This document shows positions 16,819 through 17,442 of a DNA stretch of 18,249 nucleotides, in pieces; the first letter of the stretch is position 1, and each line of letters starts with the position of its first letter. This stretch comes from a virus (Duplodnaviria > Heunggongvirae > Uroviricota > Caudoviricetes). The notes beneath the pieces were generated by a model. It saw nothing but the letters and a program-made list of their open reading frames with translations. It was not told the origin of the DNA and made no database searches. Both the position numbers and the translations under genes were made by a program. Location: IMG/VR virus record IMGVR_UViG_2651869725_000017; one strand, 5' to 3'.

Positions 16819-17442
16819 ATGCATCGTATAGACACGAAAACCGCGCAGAAGGATAAGTTCGGCGCGGGTAAGAACGGTTTTACCCGTGGTAACCCCCAGA
16901 CCGGCACGCCTGCCACCGATCTGGATGATGACTACTTTGACATGTTGCAGGAGGAGCTTTGCAGCGTGGTGGAGGCATCCGGTGCCAGTCTGGAGAAGGC
17001 GCGGCACGACCAGCTGCTTACCGCGCTTCGTGCGCTGCTGTTAAGCCGCAAGAATCCGTTTGGCGATATCAAATCGGATGGCACGGTGAAAACGGCCCTC
17101 TCAAATCTTGGTTTGGGCGAAGCGGCGAAACGAGATGTCGGAACAGGTGCTAACCAACTACCAGACATGTCTGCATGGACCAGTGGTAGTGGGTGGGTAA
17201 AGTTTCCAGACGGGACAATTATTCAGAGCGGGAGGACAACCATGGCGGCAGGACAGATTGCGGTAAGGACGCTGCCAATCCCTTTTACTACCTCAGGCTA
17301 TATTGTTCTTGCTTCGTTCTGGGGTTCAGATCCCTCACCTTCAAAACCAGTTGGCGTGTCGTCAGCTGATCTTTCAACAATCCGAATTGCCAACTGGAGC
17401 ACTCCAGCAGCAGAAATTGCCTGGATAGCCATAGGGAAATAA
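16819..17442 (+). CDS. Tail fibre protein (short, e14 StfP-like)
   Basis: 207-aa ORF. The N-terminus ([21 protein letters not shown]...[16 protein letters not shown]) is a widely conserved enterobacterial fibre constant region as I recall it. The C-terminal third is visibly AT-richer. Confidence 0.75.

Follow-up and report, generated by a model that had tools for sequence, protein, structure and literature searches.

A probable orphan pixL-type crossover site at the constant/variable junction of a prophage side tail-fibre gene

Does a stretch resembling a Din-family crossover site, found inside the side tail-fibre gene of a prophage, belong to a host-range switch, and how much of such a switch is left around it? 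We addressed this question in a DNA stretch of 18,249 nucleotides, referred to here as the window, for which the initial annotation had noticed both the resemblance and a loss of GC content further along the gene. Inversion switches acting on fibre genes have been known since the 1980s, with Gin of Mu, Cin of P1, Pin of e14, and Min of p15B as the examples, and their crossover sites are well known to lie at the boundary between the constant and variable parts of the fibre, as fibre cassettes are to move between unrelated phages. In the Hin, Gin, Cin, and Pin systems, a dimer of the serine invertase binds the site and an inverted partner, both are cut at the central 2 bp, and the segment is rotated; the switch needs a Fis-bound enhancer, which is located inside the invertase gene.

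The fibre gene and its crossover site

The phage belongs to the SfV/e14 group, in which an HK97-type head is combined with a Mu-type contractile tail, and the features at the right end of the window are listed in Table 1. The fibre had the traits of the e14/SfV-type StfP family, i.e., a conserved N-terminal region after ymfQ, a gp53-like C-terminus, and a Caudo_TAP chaperone. The nearest complete genome was that of Escherichia coli MS1679, with one mismatch in 15052-18249 and differences at 41 of 10,050 positions over the last 10 kb; there, the counterpart of the fibre gene is annotated as a gp53-like domain protein and adjoins YmfQ. The context past 18249 was taken from this genome, which differs from the window to the extent just given. 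In MS1679, the DinI gene is followed by a tyrosine integrase gene and dusA, and the end of the window falls about 1.2 kb from the right end of the prophage.

Table 1. Coordinates of the features around the fibre junction, with the evidence for each of them
Feature	Position	Strand	Evidence or details
Mu gp48/YmfQ-like baseplate protein	16231-16815	+	Pfam Phage_Mu_Gp48
Side tail-fibre gene, 207 aa, e14 StfP homologue	16819-17442	+	ORF and translation; Pfam Gp53-like_C at aa 128-206
Fibre constant (baseplate-proximal) part	16819-17107	+	92-97% identity in about 90 related loci; GC3 0.67
Probable orphan Din-family crossover site, pixL homologue	17096-17121		core 17108-17109; outer half 17096-17107; inner half 17110-17121
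Fibre variable, receptor-binding part (Sv)	17110-17442	+	homology of relatives stops at 17116-17160; 34 cassette clusters in 77 loci; GC3 0.41
Tail-fibre assembly chaperone gene tfa, chimeric at 17829-17863	17445-17885	+	Pfam Caudo_TAP, E=7e-29
Mobile Sv-tfa host-range cassette	17107-17863	+	99.3% identity in P2-like prophages L129-L131
Alternative tfa terminus (EEPDTM*) and spacer, typical of invertase-less dusA prophages	17864-17896	+	common to L126 (K-15KW01) and mEp460; absent from L042 and L002
Hairpin followed by T-run on the minus strand, probable dinI terminator	17899-17933	-	fold of -19.6 kcal/mol, z = -1.55; function inferred
DinI-like gene, start of the right-end module (DinI, integrase, dusA attachment)	18001-18249	-	Pfam DinI, E=1e-19; context from MS1679

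The composition of the DNA changed within the fibre gene. The maximum-likelihood change point for GC was at 17277, with a support interval of 17034-17438, and the GC content went from 0.557 to 0.457; GC3 fell from 0.67 in the constant part to 0.41 in the variable part and tfa. Both measurements bore out the drop that had been noticed by eye. About 120 related loci were then gathered from GTDB genomes and IMG/VR, and nearly all of them had canonical pixL (CTCTCGAAAACC TT GGTTTGGGAGAA) at the position of the window's site. GC fell after the site in all 77 loci with enough flank (0.567 to 0.466), and these loci contained 34 different variable cassettes; the homology of the loci to the window ended at 17116-17160. 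This result confirmed the constant/variable junction suspected in the initial annotation, as the fibre C-termini of the relatives are not collinear with that of the window past these positions. We take the lower GC downstream as a sign that the Sv-tfa cassette has an origin of its own and was exchanged horizontally. An aberrant left site, CTCTCGAAAACC TT CAATTGGGAGAA, was found in L092 (5347-5372), a relative whose invertase is intact; the inner half of this site is altered beside the core.

The Din-like site itself had been placed at 17097-17122, and the sequence read there, CCTCTCAAATCTTGGTTTGGGCGAAG, agreed with that given earlier. The likeness stood up to analysis and the register did not, as the correct 26-bp register begins one base earlier, at 17096-17121, and reads CCCTCTCAAATC TT GGTTTGGGCGAA, or TTCGCCCAAACC AA GATTTGAGAGGG on the reverse complement. 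The published Din-site sequences used for comparison were those in Table 3 of PMC3241671. The best alignment was obtained with pixL, which matched at 21 of 26 positions on the reverse complement, and cixL, pixR, and two mix sites matched at 18 of 26 each. A weight matrix was built from 13 published Hin, Gin, Cin, Pin, Min, and PinB sites, and both strands of the 18-kb window were scanned with it. The site was the top match on either strand, with 17.7 bits, or 16.7 bits when the pix sites were left out of the matrix, and the runner-up reached 12.8-13.3 bits; the score of the site was attained in 1 of 200 Markov-1 random windows. Authentic Din sites score 22-36 bits, and pixL scored 33.5 bits on the matrix built without pix sites. 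As far as the sequence goes, the match to a Din site can be called significant but weak. Two 12-bp halves and a 2-bp core are present, with 7 of 12 positions agreeing between the halves, versus 9 of 12 in pixL, and the core, TT/AA, is that of pix, cix, and hix.

The reading frame pointed in the same direction. The site encodes LSNLGLGE, and, in the same frame, gixL encodes IQNLGLQE, cixL ILNLGLRE, and pixL LENLGLGE; the published gix, cix, pix, and mix sites and that of the window all encode x-x-N/Y-L-G-L-x-E, so that the same stretch also serves to encode a hinge. Moreover, it aligned base for base with pixL of e14 in K-12 and with the left inverted-repeat arms of two related prophages, L002 and L042, and the first 313 nucleotides of the fibre gene (16819-17131) were 94.6% identical to K-12 stfP. 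From these alignments, 17096-17121 is, by position, homologous to pixL, which is the left crossover site in the P-inversion system of e14.

It could be argued that neither the resemblance nor the GC drop has biological meaning and that both come from chance or codon usage, since the matrix score lies below those of all authentic sites and the support interval of the change point is broad. However, the score is the highest of the window and is seldom reached in random ones, the positional homology to pixL is exact, and the same GC drop is found in every one of the 77 relatives, whose cassettes are unrelated. This explanation is refuted by the homology to K-12 stfP, the matrix result, and the drop in the 77 loci, and we give it a next to negligible probability.

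Absence of the partner site, second cassette, and invertase

In complete relatives, the inverted partner is found about 1.5-1.9 kb downstream of the left site. When the window was scanned for the inner half-site plus core, one exact copy was detected, along with five others carrying three mismatches each, which is the chance level. No inverted partner at 1.5-4 kb in cis was present in the window, and MS1679 has DinI, the integrase, and dusA immediately downstream; therefore, this prophage contains no partner. In agreement, tblastn with Pin-like invertases gave no match in the window or in the MS1679 flank. As for a second Sv'-tfa' cassette in opposite orientation, only one tfa and one fibre C-terminus were present, and no minus-strand matches to tfa were found downstream. 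The site scan, the tblastn search, and the tfa search thus upheld the earlier statement that the window lacks a partner site, an alternative cassette, and an invertase. Of the two explanations offered at that time, a fossil site or a partner located elsewhere, the evidence favored the fossil, as the same site is part of a full switch in L042 and the MS1679 flank has no partner.

To place this arrangement within its family, we used the 66 related loci that have at least 2.7 kb of downstream sequence. An intact invertase and a partner site were found together in 26 loci, and the partner site was kept without an intact invertase in 19 (17 with a fragment only and 2 with none). The partner site was missing in 21 loci, about one third of the family, of which 17 had no invertase at all and 4 had a fragment. 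The totals for the invertase were 26 intact, 21 fragment only, and 19 none. These counts indicate that the loss of the switch is common, even routine, in this family. Twelve IMG/VR relatives (L046, L067, L070, L073, L079, L082, L086, L091, L096, L107, L108, and L110) have both sites and both cassettes, and an N-terminal invertase fragment of 44-96 aa; such frozen segments could still be flipped by PinQ, PinR, or PinE acting in trans.

Collectively, we consider it very probable that 17096-17121 is a degenerate, orphan left site of the pixL type, belonging to a switch of the Pin/Gin/Cin family, and that the fibre is locked to one cassette. In complete relatives, rotation of the segment replaces the Sv-tfa cassette in use by another that lies in the opposite orientation. 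The prophage of the window lacks this other cassette, the partner site, and the invertase, presumably together with the enhancer, which would leave the fibre locked to one specificity, and the remaining role of the site would be that of hinge-coding sequence and mosaic boundary.

Distribution of the cassette and origin of the right end

A probe covering Sv and tfa (17130-17720) had matches in 5 of 5426 complete E. coli genomes. In CS18F, FY10, and E06, the cassette lies in P2-like prophages (L129-L131, Table 1), and the blastn alignment with them begins at 17107, one base before the core dinucleotide, with an unrelated fibre gene upstream. Their outer half-site, TTCTTGATTACC, is the published p15B mix half-site, and they carry a complete invertible segment and a 199-aa recombinase. 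An e14-like prophage in AP027822 (L121) has the same cassette on a canonical pixL outer half, an inverted tfa' remnant, and no invertase. In the IMG/VR locus L123, which has a third fibre type, the sequence of the window is shared from 17044 on, variant outer half included; the partner site is present, and the invertase ORF has just 104 aa, being apparently truncated. The e14-like L042, also from IMG/VR, was 99.4% identical to the window over 11819-17863, with a single mismatch in 16000-17863 (99.95%). The sequence of L042 past 17863 consists of tfa' and a fibre C-terminus, both inverted, followed by a pixR-type site (TTCTCCCAAACC AA CGTTTATGAAAA) and an invertase gene that is intact and encodes 199 aa with resolvase/HTH_7 domains. 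In all these cases, L129-L131, L121, L123, and L042, the common stretch stopped at 17863, a position within the conserved tfa 3' end. These comparisons suggest that the cassette circulates among e14-like prophages, P2-like prophages, and a third fibre type. In L129-L131 (locus 2347-3096), the annotation splits the fibre gene ahead of the crossover site into two broken pseudogene fragments, owing either to a true frameshift or to a mosaic structure that misleads the annotation.

The junction on the left side of the cassette also deserves attention. Over the 303 nt of constant region and site, the window had 8 differences from the family consensus; 5 of these lie within the 26 bp of the site, and all 5 recur in L123. 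Such a pattern appears to reflect a junction brought in along with the cassette, rather than decay by point mutation.

On the right side, the window from 17829 on, with the last 57 nt of tfa, the hairpin, and DinI, was 97.6% identical to the lambdoid phage mEp460 (L133, 2947-3054); there, tfa is reduced to a 3' stub, and the hairpin, DinI, and integrase that come next are the same. With the cassette boundary at 17863 and this likeness from 17829, the tfa of the window must be chimeric, with the joint between these two positions. The stretch 17864-17896 was also found in K-15KW01, an invertase-less dusA prophage with a different cassette. Other dusA prophages, those of 181.1 and D53-1 (L127 and L128), have independent deletions that left inverted tfa' remnants, and at the junction of the window neither an inverted tfa nor pin has left a remnant. 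A simple deletion in place was considered as the cause of the loss and was set aside as the leading explanation, because the junction is scar-free, as are that of K-15KW01 and the tfa stub in mEp460. It seems that the right-end module moves together with a tfa stub, which can serve as a recombination handle, and the invertase-less state most likely arose by homologous recombination in the conserved 3' end of tfa (17829-17863). In this history, the simplest one, an L042-like tail with its cassette would have been joined to an invertase-less right-end module made of the tfa stub, DinI, and integrase (dusA).

The hairpin at 17899-17933 is GC-rich. On the plus strand an A-run precedes its stem, so that, read on the minus strand, the stem is followed by a T-run. 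The hairpin is conserved in L002, past the invertase gene, and folds just modestly better than shuffled sequence (z in Table 1). A terminator scan returned nothing near tfa and missed this hairpin.

A different account of the locus would be that the lineage never had an inversion system, that the site is simply the conserved NLGLGE hinge motif, and that cassettes have been exchanged purely by homologous recombination. Phages of the SfV type and many dusA prophages are indeed single-cassette and invertase-less, the junction at 17864-17896 is free of inverted tfa or pin remnants and arranged as in mEp460, and the conservation of third codon positions within the site was unremarkable: among 64 distinct constant-region sequences, the stretch of codons holding the site ranked 19 of 93 in third-codon diversity, with no clear signal of selection at the DNA level. 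Nevertheless, the identical stretch of constant part (Sc), site, Sv, and tfa is part of the complete invertible segment of L042, and every other context of the cassette has the inverted partner cassette or its remnants. In addition, the five in-site differences shared with L123 indicate a junction imported with the cassette, and homologous recombination would not easily place a boundary exactly at the core between sequences that are unrelated upstream. We thus regard a lineage that was always without a switch as very improbable.

Activity of the site and comparison with known switches

Relative to pixL, the outer half of the site has four changes, including a C to T change beside the core, where nearly all published sites have C; this change alone costs 4.2 bits. 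The inner half differs from pixL at one base, an A to C change that was rejected as a sign of decay, because the same half, GGTTTGGGCGAA, adjoins intact invertases in other phages. The variant outer half, CCCTCTCAAATC, was found in 1 of 5426 complete E. coli genomes, that of MS1679, and in 5 IMG/VR contigs, always with this cassette, and the cassette was found in one orientation only in the collections searched. Inversion of the variant is expected to leave hybrid sites, in which its outer half adjoins a different inner half, and none was detected in the 5426 E. coli genomes, in IMG/VR with its 5 variant contigs, or in metagenome contigs, which gave 0 matches. These observations are consistent with a site that is presumably inactive. 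The outer halves found beside intact invertases are themselves quite degenerate, such as TTCTTGATTACC in the P2-like prophages, and so the low matrix score is no proof of a dead site. The pairing of the same variant site with an intact invertase in L042 was counted against the fossil reading.

MS1679 contains a second, sister prophage at icd (L132, 2,969,238-3,007,905), which was 99.0% identical to positions 1-9467 of the window and 97.4% identical to 11830-17122; the homology runs to 17122, one base beyond 17121, where the 26-bp site ends. The tape-measure region (9468-11829) is not common to both prophages, and the sister carries iss. It has canonical pixL and pixR, and a pin cut to 49 codons. 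A search of the MS1679 chromosome with a chimeric query pointed to two places. One is a pinQ/pinR-like sequence elsewhere on the chromosome; the other, pinE-like, was discarded as an invertase, as it is the 49-aa remnant of the icd prophage.

These findings bear on whether the site might still be a working substrate in trans, recombined by a PinQ/PinR-like enzyme, or by the Pin of another prophage, with a sister prophage or an infecting phage. Such use would give cassette capture or large rearrangements. For Hin and Gin, the two sites must be inverted and share a supercoiled domain with an enhancer in cis, and this counts against such use, as pixL of the icd prophage lies 1.7 Mb from the site of the window and in direct orientation. 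The pinQ/pinR-like sequence and the canonical sites of the icd prophage would provide enzyme and substrates, and PinQ, PinR, and PinE have all been reported to invert the e14 P segment in trans (PMC12529663). Moreover, the boundary with the P2-like prophages lies at the core (17107), with unrelated sequence upstream, as a site-specific exchange predicts, and invertase-driven exchange of stf genes had already been proposed, in a passage of PMC3945230 that cites Sandmeier 1994. On the other side, hybrid junctions with the variant outer half were absent from the collections searched, this half is restricted to the few genomes and contigs mentioned above, with the same cassette each time, and the site scores 16.7 bits, compared with at least 22 for authentic sites. 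On balance, we find continued use of the site in trans quite improbable. A related and more speculative idea is that orphan sites serve as competent docking points, that the 17107/17108 boundary records a recent invertase-catalysed transfer of the cassette between unrelated phages, and that a PinQ/PinR-type enzyme acting in trans could still load new cassettes onto the locked fibre; we regard this as unlikely.

As a degenerate pixL-type relic, the feature is an ordinary and well-understood remnant of a known host-range switch, with little import beyond annotation. The prophage fibre would be fixed to one receptor specificity, with a cassette that is a rare module in E. coli and is shared with P2-like prophages. 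The family forms a graded series of complete, truncated-invertase, and single-cassette loci, which could be used to study how a host-range switch decays. The same series could show whether exchange at the core is catalysed by the invertase, an idea already published in the passage of PMC3945230 citing Sandmeier 1994. Recent work connects inversion of the e14 P segment with defence against phage T2 (PMC12529663), and, given this link, knowing which prophages are locked may help to interpret differences between strains.

Among the systems available for comparison, one of the closest is the P-inversion system of e14 in K-12 (stfP-tfaP / tfaE-stfE' / pinE, with pixL and pixR), which has the same constant region, ymfQ neighbor, codon positions of the site, and AA/TT core. 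It differs in that the window has no second cassette, pixR, or pinE and contains a different Sv-tfa cassette, and in that its prophage is full-length and located at dusA, whereas e14 is cryptic and located at icd. The SfV/e14-like phage SKA5 and prophage L002 (FAM21845), also at dusA, resemble the window in the tail module, the DinI-integrase-dusA end, and the hairpin region. In L002, the order is fibre, tfa, inverted tfa', inverted fibre C-terminus, recombinase, and DinI, and the isolated phage SKA5 has the same layout; both have canonical pixL, and the inverted tfa'/fibre-C', the right-hand site, and an intact DNA invertase stand between tfa and DinI, whereas in the window tfa leads straight to DinI. 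The Shigella phages SfV, SfI, SfII, and SfIV have a tail and fibre constant region 95-96% identical to that of the window up to about 17169, and they have one cassette and, to our knowledge, no invertase; their variable cassette and downstream genes differ from those of the window. Finally, in Gin/gix of Mu, Cin/cix of P1, and Min/mix of p15B, the site is likewise at the constant/variable boundary of the fibre and has the same hinge reading frame, but these switches are complete and experimentally active, whereas the window keeps one site only.
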